A DNA stretch of 64,000 nt, from NCBI GenBank assembly GCA_964538915.1, contig CAZIFB010000005.1, forward strand, positions 43,747 through 107,746, written 5' to 3'. Positions within the stretch are counted from its first letter, which is position 1. Every line of letters starts with the position of its first letter. The position numbers and the translations under genes were made by a program. Positions 9,828 to 26,430 of this stretch are shown here, piece after piece. The notes beneath the pieces are model-generated. The model had not been told where the DNA came from. It saw nothing but the letters and a program-made list of their open reading frames with translations, and did no database searches. This stretch comes from an uncultured candidatus Brocadiaceae bacterium (GTDB taxonomy: Bacteria > Planctomycetota > UBA1135 > UBA2386).

Positions 9828-10321
9828 GCTCGTCGCGCGTCGACGAACTCCTCGCGACGATTCCAAGTCGTTGTCGCATCGTGCGCGTACGAACGACGTC
9901 GCGAGGGACATCTTGGTCGCCGATTTTTTTCGCGAGCAAAGTTGTGCGTGTGCTCTTCACAAGCGTCGCCGCGATCGCTAAGGACAACTCGCGTCAGAGA
10001 GGAGCGGACCCCGGCCGCCTAACCGTGGTTCTCTCCAGAGCCTGCCTTCGGAGTCCGAGTCTGCACTCGGTCTCAGCCACTCAGAGTCCGTCGAGTCTGT
10101 CACTCGTCCCGGGTGTTGCCCGACCGATCGCGGTCGCGTCGCACCTTCGCTCTCGGAGCCACCCTCCGAGGTGCTGCCACCAACTTCGCGAACCGTCCGG
10201 CGAGAGCCGAGCCGTTCCACGCCACCCGTCCGTACCCGCTTCTGGCGCTGCCGCCAGCGGCGCCGTTTCGTAGTCCCTCGTTCCACCCGTTTCGGCAACC
10301 CTGTCCTTGCACCCTAGACCC
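9828..10321. promoter_or_regulatory. Long non-coding region upstream of dnaA: dnaA promoter and possible oriC part
   Basis: About 490 bp without a credible ORF in a genome where genes usually abut or overlap. Contains T7 (9924-9930) and an imperfect direct repeat GAGTCCG(TCG)AGTCTG(T)CACTCG at 10051-10069 and 10084-10106. No canonical DnaA box found by eye. Confidence 0.3.
9850..9930 (+). terminator. Structured element after the cysteine desulfurase gene: 10-bp inverted repeat followed by a T7 run
   Basis: CCTCGCGACG (9850-9859) pairs with CGTCGCGAGG (9897-9906). T7 at 9924-9930 is rare in this GC context. However, the T run is 17 nt from the stem, not adjacent. Confidence 0.3.
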
Positions 10322-11815
10322 ATGGTGGATGCCCACACGCCAGAGTCGCAACCGCTCGACGAAAAGGAAGTGCTGCGGATCGTCCTGCAGTATCTCGGCC
10401 CGCGTGTGCGGCCGGAGCAGTTGGAGACCTGGTTCCGCACGATGAACGTGCGCCGCATCGACGACCGCGAGATCGATCTCTCGGTCACGAGCCAGTTCGT
10501 GCGTGACTGGCTCCAGCGCAACTACCTGTCCCTCCTCAACGAAGCGGTCGGTGCGCTCGGCGAACCGCGCCGCCGTCTCGTCCTGTCGAACCGCGAGGAA
10601 GACGGCTTCGACGGTTTCCGTGCAACCGGTCTCGGAGCGGCGCTCGGTCGCGGCGAACCCGCGCGCCTCGGCGCCGCCGACGAGATCGAGCGCGTGATCC
10701 GCCTCAACGACACAGCCGCGCCGATCCCCGTGACGGCGGCCGCGGCGGGGACGAACGTCGCGCCCGGCGTGCTCCGCCGTGCCACCAACCCGCTCAACCC
10801 GAACTACACGTTCGACAAGTTCGTCGTCGGTTCGTGCAACCGGCTCGCCCACGCTTCTGCGCTCGCGATCGGCGAGAACCCGGGCTGTGCCTACAACCCG
10901 CTCTTCGTTCACGGCAACGTCGGCCTCGGCAAGTCGCACCTGCTGCAGGCGATCTGTCACACGATCCTGCGGCGCGATCCGAACGCGCGAGTCGTCTACC
11001 TGAGCTGCGAGGACTTCACGAACGCGTTCATCCACGCGATCCAGAACCAGAAGCTCGACGTCTTCCGCGACTTCTACCGTTCTGCCGACGTGCTGGTGAT
11101 CGACGACGTGCAGTTCCTCGCGAATCGCGAGAAGACGCAGGACGAGTTCTTCCACACGTTCAACACGCTCTACGACGCGCAGAAGCAGATCGTGCTGTCG
11201 TCCGATCGCACACCGGTCGAGATCCCGACGATCCAGGAGCGGCTGGTCTCGCGCTTCAAATGGGGCCTGGTCGCCGAAGTCGAGGCGCCGTGCTTCGAGA
11301 CGCGCAGGGCGATCGTTCGGCGCAAGGCCGAGGGCCGCGGCGCGAGCCTGCCGGAGGACGTCGTCTCGTTCCTCGCCGAGCGCGTCACCGGGAACATCCG
11401 CGAGCTGGAGGGTGCGGTGATCAAGGTCGTCGGCATCGCCGCGATCACGGAACAACCGATCACGCTCGCCCTCGCCGAAACGAGCATGCGCGGCATGCCC
11501 GTGCTGCACCAACAGGTGTCCGTCGACGACGTGATGGCGCTCGTGACGAGTGAGTTCGCGATCACGGCGCGGGAGCTCACCGGCAAGGGCCGCACCCAGA
11601 CTGTCAGTCTGCCTCGGCAGATCGCGATGTTCCTGATCCGTGAGCACACGGAGAACTCGCTCGAGGACGTCGGCCGCATCTTCGGCAACCGCGACCACAC
11701 CACGGTCCTCTACGCGGTCACGAAGATCCAGGATCGCTCGAAGACCGATCGGCTGTTCAAGGAACTGCTCGACGGTCTCAGCACCCGCTTGCTGACGCGC
11801 TCGTTCCGGACCTGA
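10322..11815 (+). CDS. dnaA: Chromosomal replication initiator protein DnaA
   Basis: AAA+ core with NPLFVHGNVGLGKSHLLQAI (Walker A) and VLVIDDVQFL (Walker B). C-terminal HTH with RQIAMFLIRE and DHTTVLYA. ATG at 10322; the TTG at 10307 from the track is an alternative start. Confidence 0.95.
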   Translation: MVDAHTPESQPLDEKEVLRIVLQYLGPRVRPEQLETWFRTMNVRRIDDREIDLSVTSQFVRDWLQRNYLSLLNEAVGALGEPRRRLVLSNREEDGFDGFRATGLGAALGRGEPARLGAADEIERVIRLNDTAAPIPVTAAAAGTNVAPGVLRRATNPLNPNYTFDKFVVGSCNRLAHASALAIGENPGCAYNPLFVHGNVGLGKSHLLQAICHTILRRDPNARVVYLSCEDFTNAFIHAIQNQKLDVFRDFYRSADVLVIDDVQFLANREKTQDEFFHTFNTLYDAQKQIVLSSDRTPVEIPTIQERLVSRFKWGLVAEVEAPCFETRRAIVRRKAEGRGASLPEDVVSFLAERVTGNIRELEGAVIKVVGIAAITEQPITLALAETSMRGMPVLHQQVSVDDVMALVTSEFAITARELTGKGRTQTVSLPRQIAMFLIREHTENSLEDVGRIFGNRDHTTVLYAVTKIQDRSKTDRLFKELLDGLSTRLLTRSFRT

Positions 11816-12284
11816 TCGCGGGCCGCCTCGAACCGAAGCGGCAACGCTCGGGATCGTGCCTGGCGTCCTCCTGGTCGCGCGTTCTTTTGACGTCTGGGTC
11901 CGCGAAGCTGGATGGCGTGGCACCGGCGGGAGATCGGGTCGTCACGAAACCTGTGCACAGCCAGGGAGTGATGTCTGGAGCTTCTGCGGATCCCTGTCGG
12001 GAGGTCTCCCGATGCTTCCCGGGTCGTCCCGCTCCTCGTCGCAAGACGTCGAGAATGTGGATCCGTGCACCGCATCTTCCGACCGTTTCTCCAGGCCCGT
12101 GAACCGCCCTGGAGCCGGCTTTCTTGCTTCGATGGCGACGATCCATCGCTAACCTATGCACACTCGCGACGGAACGGATGACGGTGACGAGAGAGTACTT
12201 CTCTCTCACTGAAGATCTCCCGTCTCGCGCGCTTGAGCCAACACACCCGGCACCCGCACCTTCGAAGCCCGCAAGCACCGTACG
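11816..12284. promoter_or_regulatory. dnaA-dnaN intergenic region: candidate oriC with DnaA-box-like motifs
   Basis: About 470 bp non-coding. Near matches to TTATCCACA/TGTGGATAA: TGTGGATCC 12056-12064 (7/9) and CTATGCACA 12154-12162 (7/9). A palindromic TGTGCACA sits within 11951-11959. Hairpin GAGAGAG-N5-CTCTCTC at 12189-12207. Confidence 0.35.
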
Positions 12285-13379
12285 ATGAAGATCCTCTGCG
12301 ACCGCAACGCGCTGCAAGAAGCCGTCACCGTCGTCTCGTCCGTCGTTCCGGCGAAGACCACGAAGCCCATCCTGCAGAACCTCCTGCTGCGGGCCGACAG
12401 CGAAGGCATCACGTTGTTCGCGACGGACCTCGAGATGGCGGCGCGGGTGCAGCTCGACTCCGTGAAGGTGTCGAAGAAGGGGACGGCGCTCCTGCCCGCT
12501 CGTGAGACCGCGGCGCTGCTCCGCGAGCTGGGTGAGCCCACCGTGACGCTCGACAGCAGCGAGCAGCGCTGCCGCATCGAGAGCGGCGGCGGCTCGTTCG
12601 TGCTCCTGGGCGAGGACCCGGAGCAGTATCCCGAGGAAGCGCTCGGCAAGGCGGGCAAGAAGGTCGAGATCGTGGCCGGTGCGATGCTGCGGATGATCCA
12701 GGAGACGGTCTTCGCGGCGGCACGGGAGGAGACCCGTTACGCGATCAACGGCGTCCTGCTCGACTGCGCAGCGGGGTGCCTGCGCCTCGTGGCGACCGAC
12801 GGCCGACGCCTCGCGATCAGCTACGAGAACATCGACACGAAGGTCGAGTTCAAGACGGTCGTTCCGCTCCGGGCTCTGCACACCTTGAGCCGTGCGCTGA
12901 CCGAAGGCAGCAAGGAGATGCTGCGGATCGAAGTCGGCGACAAGCAGATCACCTTTGCCGTCGGTTCGACCCAGCTGGTGAGCCAGCTGCTCGAAACGCG
13001 CTTCCCCGACTACGAGGGTGTGCTGCCGAAGTCGGCCGACACGACCGTCGAGGTCTCCAAGTCGCTGCTCGAAGGTGCGCTGCGCCGCGCCGCGATCTTG
13101 TCCTCCAACGACATGCGCATGGTGCGCTTCGAGGTCGCCGACGACCAGCTTCGGATGACCGCCGAGAGTTCCGCCCGCGGCCGCGCCGACGTCGCGATCC
13201 AGGCGGTGGTGAAGGGCGCCGGCGGCTCGATCAACTTCAACCCCGACTACATCCTCGAGGCGCTGCGCATCTGCAAGCTCGACCAGGTCCGCCTCGACAT
13301 GTCGGACGACTCGATGCCGGCGAAGTTCACGCTCGGCGAGTCGTTCACCTACGTCGTCATGCCCATCAGTGGGTCGTGA
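12285..13379 (+). CDS. dnaN: DNA polymerase III beta sliding clamp
   Basis: 364 aa. MKILCDRNALQEAVTVVSSVVPAKTTKPILQNLLL and the overall three-domain length match DnaN. Positioned after dnaA. Confidence 0.95.
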   Translation: MKILCDRNALQEAVTVVSSVVPAKTTKPILQNLLLRADSEGITLFATDLEMAARVQLDSVKVSKKGTALLPARETAALLRELGEPTVTLDSSEQRCRIESGGGSFVLLGEDPEQYPEEALGKAGKKVEIVAGAMLRMIQETVFAAAREETRYAINGVLLDCAAGCLRLVATDGRRLAISYENIDTKVEFKTVVPLRALHTLSRALTEGSKEMLRIEVGDKQITFAVGSTQLVSQLLETRFPDYEGVLPKSADTTVEVSKSLLEGALRRAAILSSNDMRMVRFEVADDQLRMTAESSARGRADVAIQAVVKGAGGSINFNPDYILEALRICKLDQVRLDMSDDSMPAKFTLGESFTYVVMPISGS

Positions 13380-13442
13380 CCCGGTGGATCCCGAGTTGCC
13401 GATCGTGAGCCGACGTTCTCCGTCGAGTACCGTCTGACTTCC

Positions 13443-16197
<2,755 letters not shown>

Positions 16198-16239
16198 CGG
16201 GCTCCTCGCGGCCACGATCCGCCCACCGCGAGGACCACG

Positions 16240-17688
16240 ATGCATCGACTTCGCTATTCGATCGGCGTGCTGACGCTGCTCGCCGCCGCGCTGTGCGCGC
16301 TGTGGTTCGTCAGGATCCTGAGGAACCAGGACGAACGACCCGGCCTCGCGGTCCGAGTCGAGTTCCGCGACGCACGCGGGCTGCGCTCTGGCGCCGACGT
16401 CCGCTACCGCGGCGTATCGGTCGGCACGGTGCGAACGGTCTCGATCGCGGGCGACGGTCGCAAGGCGACGGTCGGCATGCTGCTCGATCCGATCGGTGCG
16501 GCGCAGGCTTGCGTGAACAGCGTGTTCTGGATCGTCACGCCCCGGTTCGCCGGGATCACGACGGGCGCGTCCGGTCTCGACACGCTCGTCCGCGATTCCT
16601 ACGTGACCTTCCAGACGCCGGGCGAACGCGGTTCACCGCTCGCCGACGGCAGCCTGCTCGCCGGTCGCGAGAAACCGCCGCCGGCGGCAGACCCCGAAGT
16701 GCTCGACGAGATCGAACACGGCGATCTCCTGATGAGCGTTCTGGTGCCCGAGAACCACGGACTGCGTCCCGGCTCGGCGGTGATCTACCGCGGCCAGCAG
16801 ACCGGTGACGTGCGCAGCGTCGAGCTGGCGCCGGACGGGTCGCACGTCGAAGTGAAACTGCGCATCGCGCGCAAGCACCGTCAGACGGTCACCGACAAGT
16901 CGTTCTTCTGGGTCGCGCGTCCGGCCGTGACGGGTGCGCTGCTGTCCGGGTTCACGCTGAACGACGTGAGTGCCCTGCTCACGCCCTTCGTCAGCTACTA
17001 CTCCGAACCGGGGAAAGGCGTGCCCGTGGACGACGGTCACCGCGTCGCCGCGCAGCCGATGCGGCCGTCGTTCGAGGTCGCCGCGGTGCCGAAGGCAGCC
17101 CTGCAGCCCCGCCCGCGGCCGGATCCAGCACCGGGAGCGGACGGCATCGTCGTGGTGCGGATCGTCTACGACGCGATCGAGCGCGACACCTGGAGTGCGG
17201 ACGATCCGGTGCGCGGCGAGGGCAGCGGTCTCCTTCTGCTCGCGCACGACGGCCGTGCGATCGTGGTGACCGCACGATCCGTGGTCGACGGATCGGTGAC
17301 GACGAGCGATGCGTTCGGTCGCGCTCCACAGATCGAAGACGAGCGCACGAAGGTGATGTTGCCCGACGGCTCGGTGCTTCGCGCCGTGCGGATCTGGGTT
17401 CATCCGGATGGCGCGGACCTCGCGGTCCTGCTCCTCGAGGACGTGCCGCCCGACCTGCGCGCGAGCGCGACGGATCGGCTCGCACTCGCGGAGACGATGA
17501 CGGGCAGCGACGTGCGTTGCGCCGGCCCCGACGGCGCTCCGCTCGCCGTGGCCGCGATCGAGACGATTTCCGAAGGAGCCGCACTCGGCGGTGTCGTGGT
17601 CGCGTCCGAACGAGCAGTCGGCATCGTCGGTGCGGGCAGGAAGGTCGTGCCGCTGACCTCGCTGCCCTCCGATCTGCGGCCGCGATGA
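16240..17688 (+). CDS. Membrane-anchored double-MCE (PqiB/MlaD-like) protein fused to a catalytically degenerate trypsin/HtrA-like C-terminal domain
   Basis: N-terminal TM (IGVLTLLAAALCALWFV). Two MCE units (RGLRSGADVRYRGVSVGTVRTV..FWIV and HGLRPGSAVIYRGQQTGDVRSV..FFWVARP). The C-terminus follows the HtrA layout, but His is replaced (VTARSVV), Asp is kept (GADLAVLLL) and Ser is replaced (GAALGGVVV). Confidence 0.7.
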   Translation: MHRLRYSIGVLTLLAAALCALWFVRILRNQDERPGLAVRVEFRDARGLRSGADVRYRGVSVGTVRTVSIAGDGRKATVGMLLDPIGAAQACVNSVFWIVTPRFAGITTGASGLDTLVRDSYVTFQTPGERGSPLADGSLLAGREKPPPAADPEVLDEIEHGDLLMSVLVPENHGLRPGSAVIYRGQQTGDVRSVELAPDGSHVEVKLRIARKHRQTVTDKSFFWVARPAVTGALLSGFTLNDVSALLTPFVSYYSEPGKGVPVDDGHRVAAQPMRPSFEVAAVPKAALQPRPRPDPAPGADGIVVVRIVYDAIERDTWSADDPVRGEGSGLLLLAHDGRAIVVTARSVVDGSVTTSDAFGRAPQIEDERTKVMLPDGSVLRAVRIWVHPDGADLAVLLLEDVPPDLRASATDRLALAETMTGSDVRCAGPDGAPLAVAAIETISEGAALGGVVVASERAVGIVGAGRKVVPLTSLPSDLRPR

Positions 17689-19196
17689 CGAGCGCCATGG
17701 CGCCCGCTCTCGAATTCCGCCGCTTCGGCCTCGCACACCGCCGTCCCGGCGTCGAGGACGTGTTGCTCGCCGACGTGGACCTCATGCTCGAAGAAGGGCG
17801 CTTCTACCTCTTCGTCGGGGCGAGCGGCGGCGGCAAGTCGTCGGTGCTGCGCGTGCTCGCGGGGCTCGTCGAGACGCGCGAACCGGCCCCGCGCATCTCC
17901 GGCGAACTGCTCGCGTGGGGGAAGTCGATCGTCGGCGACGACCTCTCCGCGCTGCAGGGCAACGTCGCGGCGATCCTGCAGGACGAGGGACTGCTCGACG
18001 AGCTGAGCCCGCGCGAGAACGTCGAACTCGCGCTGCGCGCCGCCGATCGATCGCGCCTTCTGGCCCCGGGTCTGCTCGCCCAGGCCGGGCTCGTCGATCC
18101 ACCGGCACGCACCGCGCAGTTGTCGGGCGGGATGCGGAAGCGTCTGGCCGTCGCTCGGGCCCTGGCGTCGAGTCCGCGTCTGCTGCTCTGCGACGAACCG
18201 ACGGCCGGCCTCGACGAGGACGCCGCGCGTCGCATTGCACGCCTTCTTCGCGACGCGCACGAACAGGATCCTGGCCGCACGACGATCGTCATCACGCACG
18301 ACCTCGACGCGTTCGAAGGGATGACCGACGGCGTGCTCGTGCTCGATCGCGCAGCCCGTTCGTTGCGACTCGAACCGCCGGGTCACCGACCCGCCGCGAA
18401 GGAACCCGCCGCCCGGGCGCCGGATCCGGTGTCGGGCGAACCGGCGCCCGTGCATGGATTGCGCCGGCTGCTGCTGCAGACCGCGGCGGTGTTCGAGACC
18501 TTCGTCGAATCGCTGCGGCGCTTGCCGCCGGTGGAGTTCGGTCAGGTCGCGCGCACCGTCGCGCGCTTCTCGATCGAACCAGCGCCGTTCGTCGCGCTCG
18601 CCGGCGCCGTCATCGGCGGCCTCGCGACGTTCTTCGCATTGAACAACAACCCGGTCGAAGGCGGCTTCGAGTCCGCGCTCCTCACCGGCACGGGCAAGGT
18701 CGCGACCGCGGTGCTCGTGCCTCTGCTCAGCGGTTTCTTCTTCACGGCGCGCATCGTCGCCGGCGCCGCGGCGCGGATCGGCACGATGAAGCGCACCAAC
18801 CAGGTCGCCGCGCTGCAGATGATGGGCGTGCGCCCCGCGGACTGGCTGCTCACGCCGCTCGTGTGGGCGATGGTGATCGCGATGCCTCTGGTGACGTTCG
18901 CCGGCGTCGTCGCGGCCGCAGTCGCCGGGGCGTTCGCTGCCGGGACGGTGTCGGGATTCTCGACGGCCGGCTGGGCGCACGCGTGGTTCGCGACGGTGGA
19001 CGCCCGCGACGTGCTCGTCGTGCTCATGAAGTCCGCGCTGTCCGGGTACCTCGTGGCGCTCGCCTGCTACCACCTCGGCATCGGCCCCAAACGGTCGAGC
19101 GCGGACGTCGGGGATGCCGTGAATCGCGCCATTGTCGTCGGCACCGGACTCGTCCTGACCGTCCATGCGGTCGGCACCTTCGTGGTGTACGCCTGA
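17685..19196 (+). CDS. Fused ABC transporter ATPase (MlaF-like) and permease (MlaE-like)
   Basis: ATGA overlap with the MCE gene stop. GASGGGKSS (Walker A), LSGGMRKRLAVARAL (signature) and LLLCDEPTAGLD (Walker B). A Pro-rich linker is followed by a multi-TM MlaE-type region (ARIGTMKRTNQVAALQMMGVRP). Confidence 0.8.
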   Translation: MTSAMAPALEFRRFGLAHRRPGVEDVLLADVDLMLEEGRFYLFVGASGGGKSSVLRVLAGLVETREPAPRISGELLAWGKSIVGDDLSALQGNVAAILQDEGLLDELSPRENVELALRAADRSRLLAPGLLAQAGLVDPPARTAQLSGGMRKRLAVARALASSPRLLLCDEPTAGLDEDAARRIARLLRDAHEQDPGRTTIVITHDLDAFEGMTDGVLVLDRAARSLRLEPPGHRPAAKEPAARAPDPVSGEPAPVHGLRRLLLQTAAVFETFVESLRRLPPVEFGQVARTVARFSIEPAPFVALAGAVIGGLATFFALNNNPVEGGFESALLTGTGKVATAVLVPLLSGFFFTARIVAGAAARIGTMKRTNQVAALQMMGVRPADWLLTPLVWAMVIAMPLVTFAGVVAAAVAGAFAAGTVSGFSTAGWAHAWFATVDARDVLVVLMKSALSGYLVALACYHLGIGPKRSSADVGDAVNRAIVVGTGLVLTVHAVGTFVVYA

Positions 19197-19262
19197 GCCA
19201 TCGGTGACACCGCCCGTTGCGCCGGCTCAAGGGGACCCCCGCCAAGGGCCGATGACCTGCCG

Positions 19263-19913
19263 GTGAAGGGCATCGAGAAGATCACTTCGGTCCGGCTCGC
19301 CGAGATCCTGACGGAGCGCGCCGCGGTCTCGTCCGAAGTCATCACCGACGCCCTGTACGCCCAGGACAAGCACGGCGAACCATTCGTCCAGATCCTGGTC
19401 AGCGGCGGCCACATCACCGAGTGGGACCTCGCGAAGCTCGTCACCGAGCACTTCAGCCTGCCCTTCCTGATGGCCGGCAACTACCACATCAGCGACGCCG
19501 CGAAGGCGCGGCTGCCGAAGGAAGTGCTGTTCAAGCACATGATCGTGCCGCTCGACGTCTTCGACGACATCGTGTGCGTCGCGATGCCCGTGATGCTCGC
19601 CTACGACGACATCGCGAAGATCCAGAAGGATCATCAGTGCGACCTCTACCCGTATGTCGGGTTGATCACCGAGAACAAGAAGGTGCTCACCGACATGCAC
19701 AAGGACTACCCGCAGTGGGTCGAGGCCGAGCAGAAGCGGCGCGAGGAAGAAGCGAAGAAGCGCTCCGCGTCGGGTGCGAAGGGCGGTGGCGACTGGATGA
19801 GCATCTTCGACGCCGGCGACCAGGCGATTCAGAGCAACAAGAAGAAGCCGTCCGGGTCTCCTGCGCCGCAGCCGTCGCCCGCCGCCGGGCAGAAGCCGCT
19901 ACCGAAGAAGTGA
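19263..19913 (+). CDS. Stand-alone T2SS-E N-terminal (GspE_N / MshEN-like) domain protein with a Lys/Pro-rich tail
   Basis: 216 aa, GTG start. LAEILTERAAVSSEVITDALYAQDKHGEPFVQILVSGGHITEWDLAKLVTEHFSLPFL and VPLDVFDDIVCVAMP fit the GspE_N repeat pattern. No ATPase domain is attached. Confidence 0.6.
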   Translation: MKGIEKITSVRLAEILTERAAVSSEVITDALYAQDKHGEPFVQILVSGGHITEWDLAKLVTEHFSLPFLMAGNYHISDAAKARLPKEVLFKHMIVPLDVFDDIVCVAMPVMLAYDDIAKIQKDHQCDLYPYVGLITENKKVLTDMHKDYPQWVEAEQKRREEEAKKRSASGAKGGGDWMSIFDAGDQAIQSNKKKPSGSPAPQPSPAAGQKPLPKK

Positions 19914-19932
19914 CCGCGGACCGCCGCGCCGA

Positions 19933-20676
19933 TCAGCGCGGGTCGATCACGAAGAGCTCGCCGTTCCGCCGCGTGAGTCGCTGCACGACGTTCTTCTGCG
20001 GGTCGTGCACCACACCGGACTCGAACCTGCCGTCTCCGTCCGTGTCGCTCCACGTCTCCACGGAACGGTCGGCGGCGTAGACCTCGAACTTCTCGGCGAA
20101 GCCGTCTTCGTTCTCGTCGAACGTCGCCGAGACGAGCACACCCTTCTTGTTGAAGAAGTCGACCCGCTCGAAGACGCGGTCGAAGTCCGCGTCGTGCGAG
20201 AACGTGACCGTCCTGCCGTCGGCACGCTGCACACAACGCAGTCCGTCCGCCTCGCCGATCCAGTCGAACAGCGGATCGCGGGGTGGCGGCCACGTCGCCC
20301 GTACCCAGAGCCCGCCGAACACGACCGCGATCGCACTCACGACGAGCAGACGCCAGTCGATCGAGGATCGGCGGGGTTCTGTGCGCGGCGTGGGCTCGCG
20401 CTCGGAGCTGGCAGCAGCGAGGGCCTGCTCCTCGAGATCGTCGACCGAGACATCGGCGCCGGCGAGGATCGTCTTCGCGCGCTCGAGGCTCGCGGTCGGC
20501 ACCAGCACACGCACACCCTGCAGGTTCATGAGGCGGCGGCTCAACGCGAGTTCGTCCGCGAGCGAATCGCCGTCGACGTGCGCCGGGATGCCCTCGGCCT
20601 GCAGCATCGCGACGAAGAGCTTCGCCTGAACCGGCGTGGCGGCGATCTTGACGACGGTCGCGATCGGTTCGCTCAC
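19933..20676 (-). CDS. Membrane protein with N-terminal DUF2007-like domain, one TM and a periplasmic C-terminal domain
   Basis: 247 aa, GTG start 2 nt after the tatA stop. N-terminus AKLFVAMLQAEGIPAHV...VLVP...ERAKTIL resembles DUF2007. TM is LLVVSAIAVVFGGLWV. Confidence 0.5.
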   Translation of the reverse strand: MSEPIATVVKIAATPVQAKLFVAMLQAEGIPAHVDGDSLADELALSRRLMNLQGVRVLVPTASLERAKTILAGADVSVDDLEEQALAAASSEREPTPRTEPRRSSIDWRLLVVSAIAVVFGGLWVRATWPPPRDPLFDWIGEADGLRCVQRADGRTVTFSHDADFDRVFERVDFFNKKGVLVSATFDENEDGFAEKFEVYAADRSVETWSDTDGDGRFESGVVHDPQKNVVQRLTRRNGELFVIDPR

Positions 20677-20678
20677 GG

Positions 20679-21059
20679 CTAGTCCTCGTTCTTCGGTGGT
20701 CCTTCGGTGGGCGTCGCAGGCGTCGTCGAAGGTGCCGGAGCGGTCTCCGGCGGCGGCTCCGACTCGATCATGTCACGCGCCGCGCTCTGGAGAGTTCGCC
20801 GCGGATCGGCGATCGCGCGCGGCACGTCCGCGACGCGCCGCAGTTCGTCCGCGGTGCCCTGCAGCGACTTCTTCACTTCGCTCAGGTCCCCGTCGCGGTC
20901 CATCTGGTCCTTGAACTCCTGCCAGCCGCGACGGAGCTGCGCTGCGACACGACCTAGGCTGCGCCCCGCCTCGGGCAGGTTGCGCCCGTAGAGCAGGAGG
21001 CCGACGACGACCAGCAGCACCATCTCAGTGCCGCCGATGTTGGGGAGGAACGCGAACAC
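20679..21059 (-). CDS. tatA: Twin-arginine translocase TatA/TatB/TatE family protein
   Basis: 126 aa, GTG start. FLPNIGGTEMVLLVVVGLLLYGRNLPEAGRSLGRVAAQLRRGWQEFK is the TatA/B TM plus amphipathic-helix signature. Confidence 0.85.
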   Translation of the reverse strand: MFAFLPNIGGTEMVLLVVVGLLLYGRNLPEAGRSLGRVAAQLRRGWQEFKDQMDRDGDLSEVKKSLQGTADELRRVADVPRAIADPRRTLQSAARDMIESEPPPETAPAPSTTPATPTEGPPKNED

Positions 21060-23025: not shown

Positions 23026-23113
23026 CCGACGGCCTCTGTTCGTTCACCATGGGATGAGGTTCACGCCACTCTGTGGACCGGAGCGGGCCGACTCACTACC
23101 GTCCCCGCCCCCC

Positions 23114-24706
23114 ATGAGCGACAAGCCCATCTTCGCCCTCGAACGGCTCACCAAGAGCTACCAAGGCAAGAAGCCGGTCCTGAAGGACGTCAGCCTCGTG
23201 TTCCTCGAAGGCGCCAAGATCGGCGTCATCGGCCAGAACGGCGCCGGCAAGTCGACGATGCTCCGCATCATGGCCGGCGTCGACAAGGAGTACGACGGCA
23301 CGGCGCGCCTCGCCGAGGGCAAGACGGTCGGCTACGTGCCGCAGGAGCCGAAGCTGCTCGAAGACCTCACGGTGCGCGGCAACGTCGAGCAGGCGGTCGC
23401 GCCCGTCCGCATGCTGCTGCGCAAGCACGAGGAGCTGTCCATGAAGCTCGGCGAGGACCTGCCGCCGAAGGAGATGGACAAGGTGATGGCCGAGCTCGAA
23501 CGGCTGCAGCACGAGATCGAGGCGAAGGACGCGTGGGAACTCGACCGCCACGTCGAGACCGCGATGACGAAGCTGCACCTGCCGCCCGGCGAGAAGATGG
23601 TGAACGCGTGCTCCGGCGGTGAACGGCGCCGCGTCGCGCTGTGCCGCACTCTGCTCGAGCATCCCGACCTGCTGCTGCTCGACGAACCGACGAACCACCT
23701 CGACGTCGAGACCGTCCGCTGGCTCGAAGAGACGCTGCGCGAATACAAGGGCACGGTCGTCTGCATCACGCACGACCGCTTCTTCCTCGACAACGTCGTC
23801 GGCTGGATGCTCGAGGTCTGGCACGGCAAGGCGATCCCGTACCAGGGCAACTACTCCGAGTACCTGATCCAGCGCAGCAAGCGCATGCAGGTGCAGGAAG
23901 TGCAGGAGCAGCGCCGCTCGAAGTTCCTCGACCGCGAACTCGAGTGGATCCGCATGAACCCGAAGGCGCGCACGACCAAGAACAAGGCACGCCTCAAGAA
24001 CTACGACAAGATGCTCGAGCAGGAGGTCGAGGAGAAGGACGACACCGTCGAGCTGCACATCCCGCCGGGCAAGCGCCTCGGCGACACCGTCATCCGCTTC
24101 GAGAAGGTCAACTTCGCGTACGACAAGGAACACAACGTCGTCGAGAACCTGTCGTTCGAGCTGGCGCCCGGCGACATCCTCGGCATCGTCGGTCCGAACG
24201 GCACCGGCAAGACGACCTGCCTCAAGCTCATCACCGGCAGGCTGAAGCCCGACAGCGGCAAGGTGACCGTCGGCCAGACGGTCGAGCTGTGCCACGTCGA
24301 CCAGGAGCGCGAGACGCTCGATCCGGCGAAGACCGTGTGGCAGGAGATCAGCGACGCGCAGGACATCATCAGGCTCGGCAAGTTCGAGGTGAACAGCCGC
24401 AGCTACGTCGCGAAGTTCAACTTCACCGGTCCCGACCAGCAGCAGCTCGTCGGCTCACTGTCGGGCGGTCAGCGCAATCGCGTGCAGCTCGCCAAGATGC
24501 TGCGCCGCGGCGGCAACGTGATCCTGCTCGACGAGCCGACGAACGACCTCGATCTCGACACGCTGCGCGTTCTCGAAGAGGCGATCGCCGAGTTCCCCGG
24601 CTGCGTCGTGGTCGTGTCCCACGACCGCTACTTCCTCGATCGCATCTGCACGAAGATCCTCGACCTCGGCAACTACGAGCCGGGCAAGTACCTCGACAGT
24701 CTGTGA
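23114..24706 (+). CDS. ettA: ABC-F ATPase, EttA-like translational throttle
   Basis: ATG at 23114. Closely parallels E. coli EttA: GAKIGVIGQNGAGKSTMLRIMAGVDKE, CSGGERRRVALCRTLL, ITHDRFFLDNVVGWMLE. Second cassette has GIVGPNGTGKTT and LSGGQRNRVQLAKML. Confidence 0.9.
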   Translation: MSDKPIFALERLTKSYQGKKPVLKDVSLVFLEGAKIGVIGQNGAGKSTMLRIMAGVDKEYDGTARLAEGKTVGYVPQEPKLLEDLTVRGNVEQAVAPVRMLLRKHEELSMKLGEDLPPKEMDKVMAELERLQHEIEAKDAWELDRHVETAMTKLHLPPGEKMVNACSGGERRRVALCRTLLEHPDLLLLDEPTNHLDVETVRWLEETLREYKGTVVCITHDRFFLDNVVGWMLEVWHGKAIPYQGNYSEYLIQRSKRMQVQEVQEQRRSKFLDRELEWIRMNPKARTTKNKARLKNYDKMLEQEVEEKDDTVELHIPPGKRLGDTVIRFEKVNFAYDKEHNVVENLSFELAPGDILGIVGPNGTGKTTCLKLITGRLKPDSGKVTVGQTVELCHVDQERETLDPAKTVWQEISDAQDIIRLGKFEVNSRSYVAKFNFTGPDQQQLVGSLSGGQRNRVQLAKMLRRGGNVILLDEPTNDLDLDTLRVLEEAIAEFPGCVVVVSHDRYFLDRICTKILDLGNYEPGKYLDSL

Positions 24707-25395: not shown

Positions 25396-26430
25396 ATGCG
25401 ACACCTCTTCACAGCTGCCGCCATCGCGATGTTCGCGGGCGGTGTTCTCGCCCAGGATCGGGTCACGCTCGCCAACGGCGACGTGCTCACGGGCACCATC
25501 AAGTCGATGGCCGACGGCAAGCTCGTCATCACGTCGGCTCTTCTCGGTGACATCACGGTCCCCATGGCGAACGTCAGCGACGTCGTCACGAAGGAAGCCG
25601 TCACGCTCGAGACCGCCACCGGCGACCGCCTCTTGAACCGCAAGATCCTCGGCCTCGAGGGCGGCAATCTGAAGCTCGAAGGTGCGACGACCTCGCTCGC
25701 GATGAAGGACCTCGGCAAGATCAATCCGCCGGAGAAGGTCGAGCCGAAGTGGACCGGCTCGGTGAAGCTGAGTGCGCTCTGGGCGGACGGCAACACCGAT
25801 CGGCGCGCAGTCGGCGCCGCGTTCGACGCGTCGCTGCGCCGCGAGGACGACCGGATCTCGCTCGACGCTGCGTGGGACTACAGCGAAGACAAGGACACGG
25901 ACTCGACGTCAGCGACGTTCCGCGACTGGAAGCTGAATCAGCGCCGCGCCGGCGGTGGCATCAAGTACGACTACTTCATCAGCAAGAAGTGGTACGTGCT
26001 GGTGACCTCGCGCGTGCTCGGTGACACGCTCGCCGACATTCAGCTGCGCTACACCGGCGGCCTCGGCATCGGCTACACGTGGGTGGAGAACGACTCGACG
26101 ACGTTCCTGACCGAAGTGGGTCTTTCGTACTTCAACGAGAACTACCGCACGCCTGGCGTGGAGTCGCAGGACTACCTGGCCGCACGCGCCGCCTACAAGC
26201 TGACCCACGCGTTCAGCGACGAAACCAAGCTGGTGCACGGTGTGGAAGCGTTCCCCTCCCTCGAAGACGGAGCCGACGTGTACCTGCAGGCGAAGACGGA
26301 GGTCGTCACATCGCTGACCGATTCCATGATCGCGTCGATCGCACACGTGCTGGACTACGACAACACGCCGGCGCCGGGCCGCGACCGCGTCGACAACCGC
26401 GTGCTGCTGTCCGTCGGCTGGTCGTTCTGA
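25396..26430 (+). CDS. DUF481 family outer-membrane beta-barrel protein
   Basis: Signal peptide MRHLFTAAAIAMFAGGVLAQD. N-terminal LANGDVLTGTI..DGKLVI repeats. Alternating-residue barrel region ending in SVGWSF (terminal aromatic). Confidence 0.7.
   Translation: MRHLFTAAAIAMFAGGVLAQDRVTLANGDVLTGTIKSMADGKLVITSALLGDITVPMANVSDVVTKEAVTLETATGDRLLNRKILGLEGGNLKLEGATTSLAMKDLGKINPPEKVEPKWTGSVKLSALWADGNTDRRAVGAAFDASLRREDDRISLDAAWDYSEDKDTDSTSATFRDWKLNQRRAGGGIKYDYFISKKWYVLVTSRVLGDTLADIQLRYTGGLGIGYTWVENDSTTFLTEVGLSYFNENYRTPGVESQDYLAARAAYKLTHAFSDETKLVHGVEAFPSLEDGADVYLQAKTEVVTSLTDSMIASIAHVLDYDNTPAPGRDRVDNRVLLSVGWSF

Follow-up and report, generated by a model that had tools for sequence, protein, structure and literature searches.

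A two-gene MCE transporter module of Planctomycetota with a predicted HtrA-like pseudoprotease domain and a fused ABC ATPase–permease

Why would a membrane-anchored lipid-transport protein end in a domain that resembles a trypsin-like protease and appears to have lost its catalytic residues? The question is raised by two co-directional genes at positions 16240–19196 (+) of a 64,000-nucleotide stretch of DNA from an uncultured candidatus Brocadiaceae bacterium (Planctomycetota; assembly GCA_964538915.1, contig CAZIFB010000005.1, positions 43,747 to 107,746). This whole stretch, hereafter the window, has a G+C content of ~69%. Gene 1 encodes a protein with two mammalian cell entry (MCE) domains followed by the protease-like domain, and gene 2 encodes an ATP-binding cassette (ABC) ATPase joined to an MlaE-type permease in a single polypeptide. 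An initial annotation of the locus had proposed both fusions. Our analysis inclines us, with more confidence than doubt, to the view that the pair encodes an MCE-type ABC lipid transporter equipped with a non-catalytic distal binding or docking module. The parts of gene 1, with the evidence for each, are as follows.

16240..17688 (+): gene 1, 482 amino acids (aa), anchored in the membrane, with two MCE domains and a predicted C-terminal pseudoprotease (open reading frame (ORF), Pfam, AlphaFold2 (AF2) and >120 full-length homologues)
16243..16332 (+): N-terminal transmembrane anchor, aa 2–31 (AF2 helix 2–31; hydropathy peak 8–26)
16339..16668 (+): MCE domain 1, aa ~34–143 (Pfam MlaD 35–84; AF2 strands 36–143; Foldseek to LetB/PqiB, expect value (E) 1e-17 to 1e-16)
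16720..17055 (+): MCE domain 2, aa ~161–272 (second Pfam MlaD stretch; AF2 strands 163–270; column identity 0.84)
17056..17148 (+): poorly conserved Pro-rich linker, aa 273–303 (predicted local distance difference test (pLDDT) score 54–58; column identity 0.49)
17149..17664 (+): HtrA-like (S1-C type) predicted pseudoprotease domain, aa 304–475 (AF2, Foldseek and profile search)

The transmembrane anchor and the two MCE domains had been recognized in the initial annotation, and several methods recover them. Pfam matches MlaD (PF02470) in two stretches (E 1.7e-22), and the best NCBIfam model is PqiB (E 4.8e-20, score 71.7 against a cut-off of 525). The AF2 model of the full-length monomer, built from a 37-sequence alignment with a mean pLDDT of 86.4, places an N-terminal helix at residues 2–31 ahead of two similar beta-rich units, a disordered linker and a confident beta-rich C-terminal domain, with no helix after the second MCE unit. 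When this model was compared with known structures by Foldseek, the best matches were LetB (E 6.6e-18) and PqiB (E 6.9e-16), followed by MlaD and Mce1 subunits (E ~1e-6), all with probability 1.00, and then by HtrA. Each MCE unit has one low-confidence loop, at residues 105–116 in the first and 230–241 in the second, and in the model these loops seem to sit where the pore-lining loops of MCE domains would be expected.

What, then, is the C-terminal domain? Modelled alone, it reached a pLDDT of 91.2 and a predicted template modelling score (pTM) of 0.88, with a complete six-stranded N-terminal barrel and a shortened second barrel. Foldseek returned 119 PDB matches for it at E<=0.001, and the top 50 were all protease domains of HtrA1, HtrA2, HtrA3, DegP, DegQ or Deg9, bearing out the HtrA/trypsin-type assignment made initially. 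The HtrA-family matches had E of 1e-5 to 2e-4 and probability 1.00, over ~190 aligned columns at 16–21% identity. At the level of sequence, Pfam places Trypsin_2 on residues 328–442 of gene 1 (E 5e-4, 21.2 bits). A profile built from the domain was also run against 1.84 billion representatives (E<=0.001) and matched 89 proteins in total. Nearly all were proteins of 470–540 aa with the domain at ~300–500, or fragments of such proteins, and the members scanned have two MlaD matches each. The weakest matches (E 4e-6 to 1e-3) were genuine proteases, with Pfam Trypsin_2 at E 1e-18 to 1e-23, and three clusters of them are annotated at source as "S1-C subfamily serine protease". The motifs G-x-G, T-x-R-x-V-V-D, W-x-x-P-D-G-x-D-L-A and G-x-x-G-I are common to the domain and to membrane-anchored S1-C proteases. 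A PDB sequence-profile search with the alignment of the domain gave marginal trypsin fragments only (E 0.4) and was not useful for homology. Pfam detected no PDZ domain in gene 1 at E<=1, and the protein ends 7 residues past the protease-like domain.

The nearest active relatives (P0320, P0321, P0323 and P0324) are S1-C proteases of 369–465 aa in which the protease domain is C-terminal, and they have the motifs TNRHVVD, W-x-APDG-x-DLA and GNSGGG in common; P0320 carries an N-terminal Prok-RING_1 domain. Together the four represent a candidate donor family for the domain.

The fate of the catalytic triad was read from a MAFFT alignment of 66 family members with six active relatives and E. coli DegS (= PDB 3LGI). 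An hhalign comparison of the family profile with DegS as a single sequence, at a probability of 3%, was used for the His and Asp register only, and MAFFT agreed with it. The three codons are these.

17278..17280 (+): Ser347, in place of the catalytic His (TARS here, TNRH in active relatives; hhalign to DegS, MAFFT)
17416..17418 (+): Asp393, at the retained catalytic Asp position (DLA motif; hhalign to DegS, MAFFT)
17581..17583 (+): Ala448, in place of the catalytic Ser (GAALGG here, GNSGGG in active relatives; aligned without gaps)

Around the His position the active relatives read T-N-R-H-V-V-D and our protein T-A-R-S-V-V-D; around the Ser position they read G-N-S-G-G-G-L and it reads G-A-A-L-G-G-V, without a gap; and the Asp position is D-L-A in both the active relatives and the family. 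The motifs quoted in the initial annotation are all present (VTARSVV at 343–349, GADLAVLLL at 391–399 and GAALGG at 446–451). Its reading of an Ala at the Ser position and its retained Asp393 both stand, but its His position, Arg346, was one residue off; Ser347 occupies that column, and Arg346 corresponds to the conserved Arg or Lys that precedes His in active relatives. Leu449, which the register of the PDB profile search gave as the Ser position, was considered and dropped in favour of Ala448, to which the gap-free alignment with the closest active relatives points.

Across the 66 members, the His column holds Ser in 52, Ala in 8, Thr in 2 and Cys, Gln, Arg and Pro in 1 each, and His in none (0/66). 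The Asp column is mostly preserved (D58, N5, G2, H1), and the Ser column is variable (W10, A9, N8, S8, H5 and others). Members at only 31–34% identity have the same triad pattern, and no alignment restores an intact triad. With His in no member and a variable Ser column, the domain is, to judge by its sequence, a pseudoprotease throughout the family, as had been suspected from this locus. Because Arg346, Asp350, Trp386 and the DLA motif are also conserved in active relatives, they look structural and inherited rather than newly functional.

The domain has nonetheless been kept. Mean column identity is 0.78 in the N-terminal barrel of the predicted pseudoprotease, compared with 0.81 in the first MCE domain and 0.84 in the second, and this near-equality indicates that the domain is maintained by selection and is not decaying. 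By the same measure the C-terminal half of the domain reaches 0.52, the linker 0.49 and the final 12 residues 0.74. The high value at the extreme C terminus reflects a short motif:

17662..17685 (+): conserved tail L-P-x-D-L-R-P (column counts, 66 members)

Within it, P476 is present in 65/66 members, R480 in 62/66 and P481 in 59/66. The motif is specific to the family, and its positions are not conserved in active proteases.

What does gene 1 work with? Gene 2 begins at its very end. As had been noted initially, the two overlap in an ATGA, the start codon of gene 2 (17685–17687) running into the stop codon of gene 1 (17686–17688); an in-frame ATG at 17697 offers a second possible start. The overlap is not kept among relatives, in which the gap between the genes is 0 to ~60 nucleotides. 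Gene 2 is made up as follows.

17685..19196 (+): gene 2, ABC ATPase and MlaE-type permease in one polypeptide, 503 aa (Pfam, >120 fused homologues, tblastn)
17685..18359 (+): ABC nucleotide-binding domain, aa 1–225 (motif scan, Pfam, PDB phmmer)
18360..18449 (+): Pro/Ala-rich interdomain linker, aa ~226–255 (sequence)
18450..19193 (+): MlaE-type permease domain (Pfam, hydropathy, PDB phmmer)

Pfam finds ABC_tran at residues 28–174 (E 1e-23) and MlaE (PF02405) at 295–498 (E 3e-31; 109 bits, cut-off 22.5). The motifs of the ATPase half are intact, with Walker A (GASGGGKS) at 45, a Q-loop, LSGG at 146, Walker B (LLLCDE) at 166 and an H-loop at 203. By hydropathy, the permease half consists of an amphipathic N-terminal helix and then five hydrophobic segments, and its PDB phmmer matches are confined to MlaE of P. 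aeruginosa, A. baumannii and E. coli and to mycobacterial YrbE1A/B. The ATPase half matches generic ABC domains best in the PDB (DppD, ABCB and ABCA), and its top NCBIfam and PDB matches taken together are FtsE, CydD, DppD and ABCB. Given these generic ATPase matches and the MlaE-specific permease, the accurate label is an ABC ATPase fused to an MlaE-type permease. The initial annotation had called the protein an MlaF–MlaE fusion; the ATPase–permease fusion is real and conserved and its MlaE half is specific, but orthology to MlaF is not borne out by best PDB matches to DppD and ABCB. In published MlaFEDB structures the N terminus of MlaE is cytoplasmic, and fusion of an ATPase at that end would therefore be topologically sound.

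Is the arrangement peculiar to one genome? More than 120 full-length homologues were found for each of the two genes. Those named by organism belong to Planctomycetota or to unclassified-bacterium metagenome bins, and they carry no annotation beyond "MlaD/MCE family protein" or "ABC transporter permease". A survey of related loci, taking one genome per species, yielded 135 genomes with a relative. The 80 loci listed all come from metagenome-assembled genomes, nearly all labelled Planctomycetota and a few with bin labels of other taxa, and the relatives reach down to 31% identity. Complete metagenome-assembled chromosomes with the module include OZ245838.1, OZ245006.1 and JBKAGP010000001.1. In every locus with enough downstream sequence, gene 2 follows gene 1 directly and is recovered as a single tblastn high-scoring segment pair covering both halves. 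Recurrence of both fusions in related loci from independent assemblies indicates that neither is an assembly artefact.

At ~40% identity and above, nearly every relative also has gyrB directly upstream, and downstream come an MshEN-like protein and TatA. In the four most distant loci (31–34% identity) only the pair remains, flanked by unrelated genes for a beta-lactamase-family protein and a Met-zincin, with the Pfam architecture of the pair unchanged. The conserved functional unit is thus the two-gene module, and the remainder is lineage synteny near the replication origin. We considered gyrB, the MshEN-like protein and TatA as components of the system and did not adopt them, the origin-proximal region being syntenic and the distant loci retaining only the pair.

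How does the module compare with known systems? Its layout is a variant, deeply conserved, of known MCE/ABC lipid transport, and we found no description of it in searchable papers. With MlaFEDB of E. coli, P. aeruginosa and A. baumannii (6XBD, 7CH8, 6Z5U) it has in common an MlaE-type permease, an ABC ATPase with intact motifs and an adjacent gene for a membrane-anchored MCE protein. In MlaFEDB, however, MlaF and MlaE are separate proteins and MlaD has a single MCE domain with a C-terminal helix, whereas here ATPase and permease form one chain, there are two MCE domains with no C-terminal helix, the ATPase is not specifically MlaF-like and a predicted pseudoprotease domain is added. The module also differs in having no STAS/MlaB or MlaC gene nearby: among nine neighbouring ORFs scanned (10.3–26.4 kb of the window) none belongs to the MlaB/STAS, MlaC or MlaA families, consistent with the initial remark that no MlaC- or MlaB-like gene follows, and the gene table of the relative locus L001 contains nothing MlaA- or MlaC-like.

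For the tandem MCE region, the best matches by structure and in NCBIfam are to the E. coli proteins PqiB and LetB (YebT), and by analogy with them a stacked-ring arrangement would be expected here. They have 3 and 7 MCE domains, respectively, and partners, PqiA and LetA, without an ATPase domain (PMC12436622), in contrast to the two MCE domains, the ABC/MlaE fusion partner and the absence of a coiled-coil needle in our module. Four architecture types were reported to cover >97% of MCE proteins, with multi-MCE proteins specific to Proteobacteria (Isom et al. 2017). No MCE–trypsin combination is present in Table S1 of that study, although the domain described here falls below the Pfam threshold anyway. 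Full-text literature searches for MCE proteins with trypsin-like, pseudoprotease or HtrA-like domains, or for fused MlaF/MlaE, returned no relevant description; the initial suggestion of an undescribed architecture agrees with these searches and with the table.

A broader survey identified MlaEFD as a widespread, ancestral minimal core, and described as common the long MlaD proteins that bridge the envelope and carry a beta-barrel in the outer membrane, although the barrel is absent from MlaD of the Planctomycetes–Verrucomicrobia–Chlamydiae (PVC) group (Grasekamp et al. 2023, PMC10665443). More recently, a Mla–Pqi chimera, Mpc, was described in Brucella (Lannoy et al. 2025, PMC12436622). Both the long MlaD system of Veillonella parvula and Brucella Mpc resemble our module in combining an MlaE/F-type ABC core with an MCE protein that has its own distal extension, and in having no MlaA or MlaC. 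The distal element itself differs, being a helical tunnel with an outer-membrane beta-barrel in Veillonella, a helical needle that docks a PqiC-like lipoprotein in Brucella and, here, a globular, apparently dead HtrA-like domain on a flexible linker. In other MCE systems the tunnel is extended by a helical needle, as in PqiB, Mce1 and Mpc, by a beta-barrel, as in Veillonella MlaD, or by the soluble shuttle MlaC.

On the protease side, the domain has in common with HtrA, DegP and DegS (MEROPS S1C) the chymotrypsin-type two-barrel fold and its motifs. It differs from them in lacking the catalytic His and Ser and any detected PDZ domain, in its reduced C-terminal barrel and in its fusion to MCE domains. 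MamO offers a published parallel, as a bacterial trypsin-like protease repurposed to a non-proteolytic role (PMC4794232).

How might the two proteins act together? We picture the pair as an ABC transporter of the MCE type that sits in the inner membrane and moves a hydrophobic substrate, most likely a glycerophospholipid. Gene 2 would be a half-transporter, whose dimer would supply two ATPase and two permease domains. By analogy with characterized MCE assemblies, gene 1 would form a hexamer with one transmembrane helix per subunit, its two stacked MCE rings enclosing a hydrophobic pore above the permease. Each gene 1 subunit would then present an HtrA-derived domain on a flexible Pro-rich linker of ~30 residues. 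Having lost His and Ser, this domain would no longer cut protein; it may instead hold a periplasmic or outer-membrane partner, or cap or organize the distal end of the tunnel, and the L-P-x-D-L-R-P tail may form part of the docking interface. A docking role is suggested by the loss of catalysis alongside strong conservation of the N-terminal barrel and the tail. The sequences and models themselves show which domains are present and how they fold, that the triad is dead, that the ATPase motifs are intact and that both fusions are conserved, whereas the stoichiometry, the stacked rings, the lipid substrate and the docking role are what we infer from them.

Several observations weigh against this reading. 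The Trypsin_2 score of 21.2 bits is below the gathering score of 27.6, yet homology is supported because the reverse profile search reaches genuine S1-C proteases. The fold match to HtrA is moderate (template modelling (TM) score ~0.5, root-mean-square deviation 5–6 Å), as a result of the reduced C-terminal half-barrel. The ATPase half is not specifically MlaF-like, and MlaF is absent from its top 60 PDB matches. With respect to substrate, MCE systems also move sterols and other lipids. Finally, two MCE rings with a single globular domain would probably not reach across the periplasm alone, so that a partner is to be expected, and none is evident in the conserved neighbourhood scanned.

A more specific form of the docking proposal is, in our estimate, possible but rather unlikely: six tethered pseudoprotease domains and their tails would together capture lipidated cargo or a partner in the outer membrane or cell wall, and so replace MlaC/MlaA, the PqiB needle with PqiC, or the Veillonella barrel. 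If true, the dead HtrA domain would be a previously unrecognized means by which an MCE transporter gains access to the outer membrane in a Planctomycetota lineage without a beta-barrel long MlaD.

We assign a similarly low likelihood to the idea that the domain is a tethered carrier or chaperone, which would bind a lipid, a lipoprotein or an unfolded outer-membrane protein between its barrels, exchange this cargo with the MCE pore and thereby replace MlaC. We know of no chymotrypsin fold that acts as a lipid carrier; catalytically inactive DegP variants are, for their part, widely reported to keep chaperone activity. A linker of ~30 residues, Pro-rich and poorly conserved, would permit the movement required, and the ORFs scanned in the neighbourhood, and in the neighbourhood only, include no MlaC-like gene. 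Repurposing of a trypsin-like bacterial protease for binding has a precedent in MamO, which is reported to bind metal (PMC4794232). Simple docking, however, fits the same data equally well.

That the domain is still an enzyme seems very unlikely. A non-canonical site, for example one built from Ser347 and Asp393 or completed by a residue of a neighbouring subunit, would in that case process a protein or lipoprotein substrate where the MCE tunnel opens. Such a site would account for Asp393 being kept with its DLA context in 58/66 members, for Ser347 in 52/66, for the near-invariance of Arg346 and Asp350, and for the N-terminal barrel around the former active site being the best-conserved part of the domain. 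But Ser347 gives way to Ala, Thr, Cys, Gln, Arg or Pro in 14/66 members and Asp393 to Asn, Gly or His in 8/66, the column of the nucleophile varies widely, and the family no longer has the GNSGG oxyanion motif. The residues that might seem newly recruited (Arg346, Asp350, Trp386 and DLA) are common to active relatives and have the look of an inherited framework. The C-terminal half-barrel, moreover, is reduced and shows the lowest conservation in the domain, and it is in this half that active proteases have their specificity pocket.

Artefact, whether frameshift, misassembly or faulty gene calling behind the fusions or a chance trypsin-like match in an unrelated beta-rich domain, could draw on the sub-threshold Trypsin_2 score, the marginal PDB profile matches (E 0.4) and the 3% hhalign probability to DegS, but is effectively refuted by continuous frames in >120 database proteins per gene and in related loci from independent assemblies, by Foldseek probability 1.00 over ~190 columns against dozens of HtrA structures, and by a library-wide hmmsearch that reaches true S1-C proteases with TxRxVVD, W-x-x-P-D-G-x-DLA and G-x-x-G-I.

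The docking reading matters because the MCE route linking the inner membrane with the outer one differs by lineage, running through a shuttle, a needle, a ring stack or a barrel. Our module is a compact, two-gene candidate for the distal element of the PVC group, made of a repurposed protease fold. It also adds a clear and deeply conserved bacterial candidate to the few known pseudoproteases such as MamO. As the organisms are uncultured, functional tests would need heterologous systems; the single-chain half-transporter should ease heterologous expression and cryo-electron microscopy.

The surroundings of the pair are those of an origin-proximal region. Upstream, dnaA, dnaN, dciA and gyrB lie in a row (10307–16197, +), with no plus-strand terminator-like site between gyrB and gene 1. 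A scan of 15900–20000 found no plus-strand promoter or terminator signals at all, and it is for that reason uninformative on operon boundaries. The next gene 3' of gene 2 is the following.

19263..19913 (+): MshEN/T2SSE_N-like protein, 216 aa (weak Pfam match, E 4.5e-4)

This protein directly follows gene 2 in most related loci, at 45–95% identity. In the four most distant loci it does not accompany the pair, and in three others (L021, L022 and L058) insertions have displaced it. It may serve the transporter as a cytoplasmic accessory or be no more than conserved synteny.

An identical copy of gene 1 is present in the protein collection, yet the best match to gene 2 there is only 94% identical, and the gene 2 of the window's own genome may therefore be annotated with a different start. 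Further downstream are genes for a DUF2007-like protein (19933–20676, −), a TatA/B/E-family protein (20679–21059, −), a sigma-70-like protein and an ABC-F type double-ATPase protein (23054–24706, +); TatA and the ABC-F protein are syntenic in L001 too. A DUF481 protein is encoded at 25396–26430 (+), ~6 kb 3' of the module, and also at 14465–15481 in L001, the locus of a 61%-identical relative; DUF481 is regarded as a family of beta-barrels of the outer membrane.

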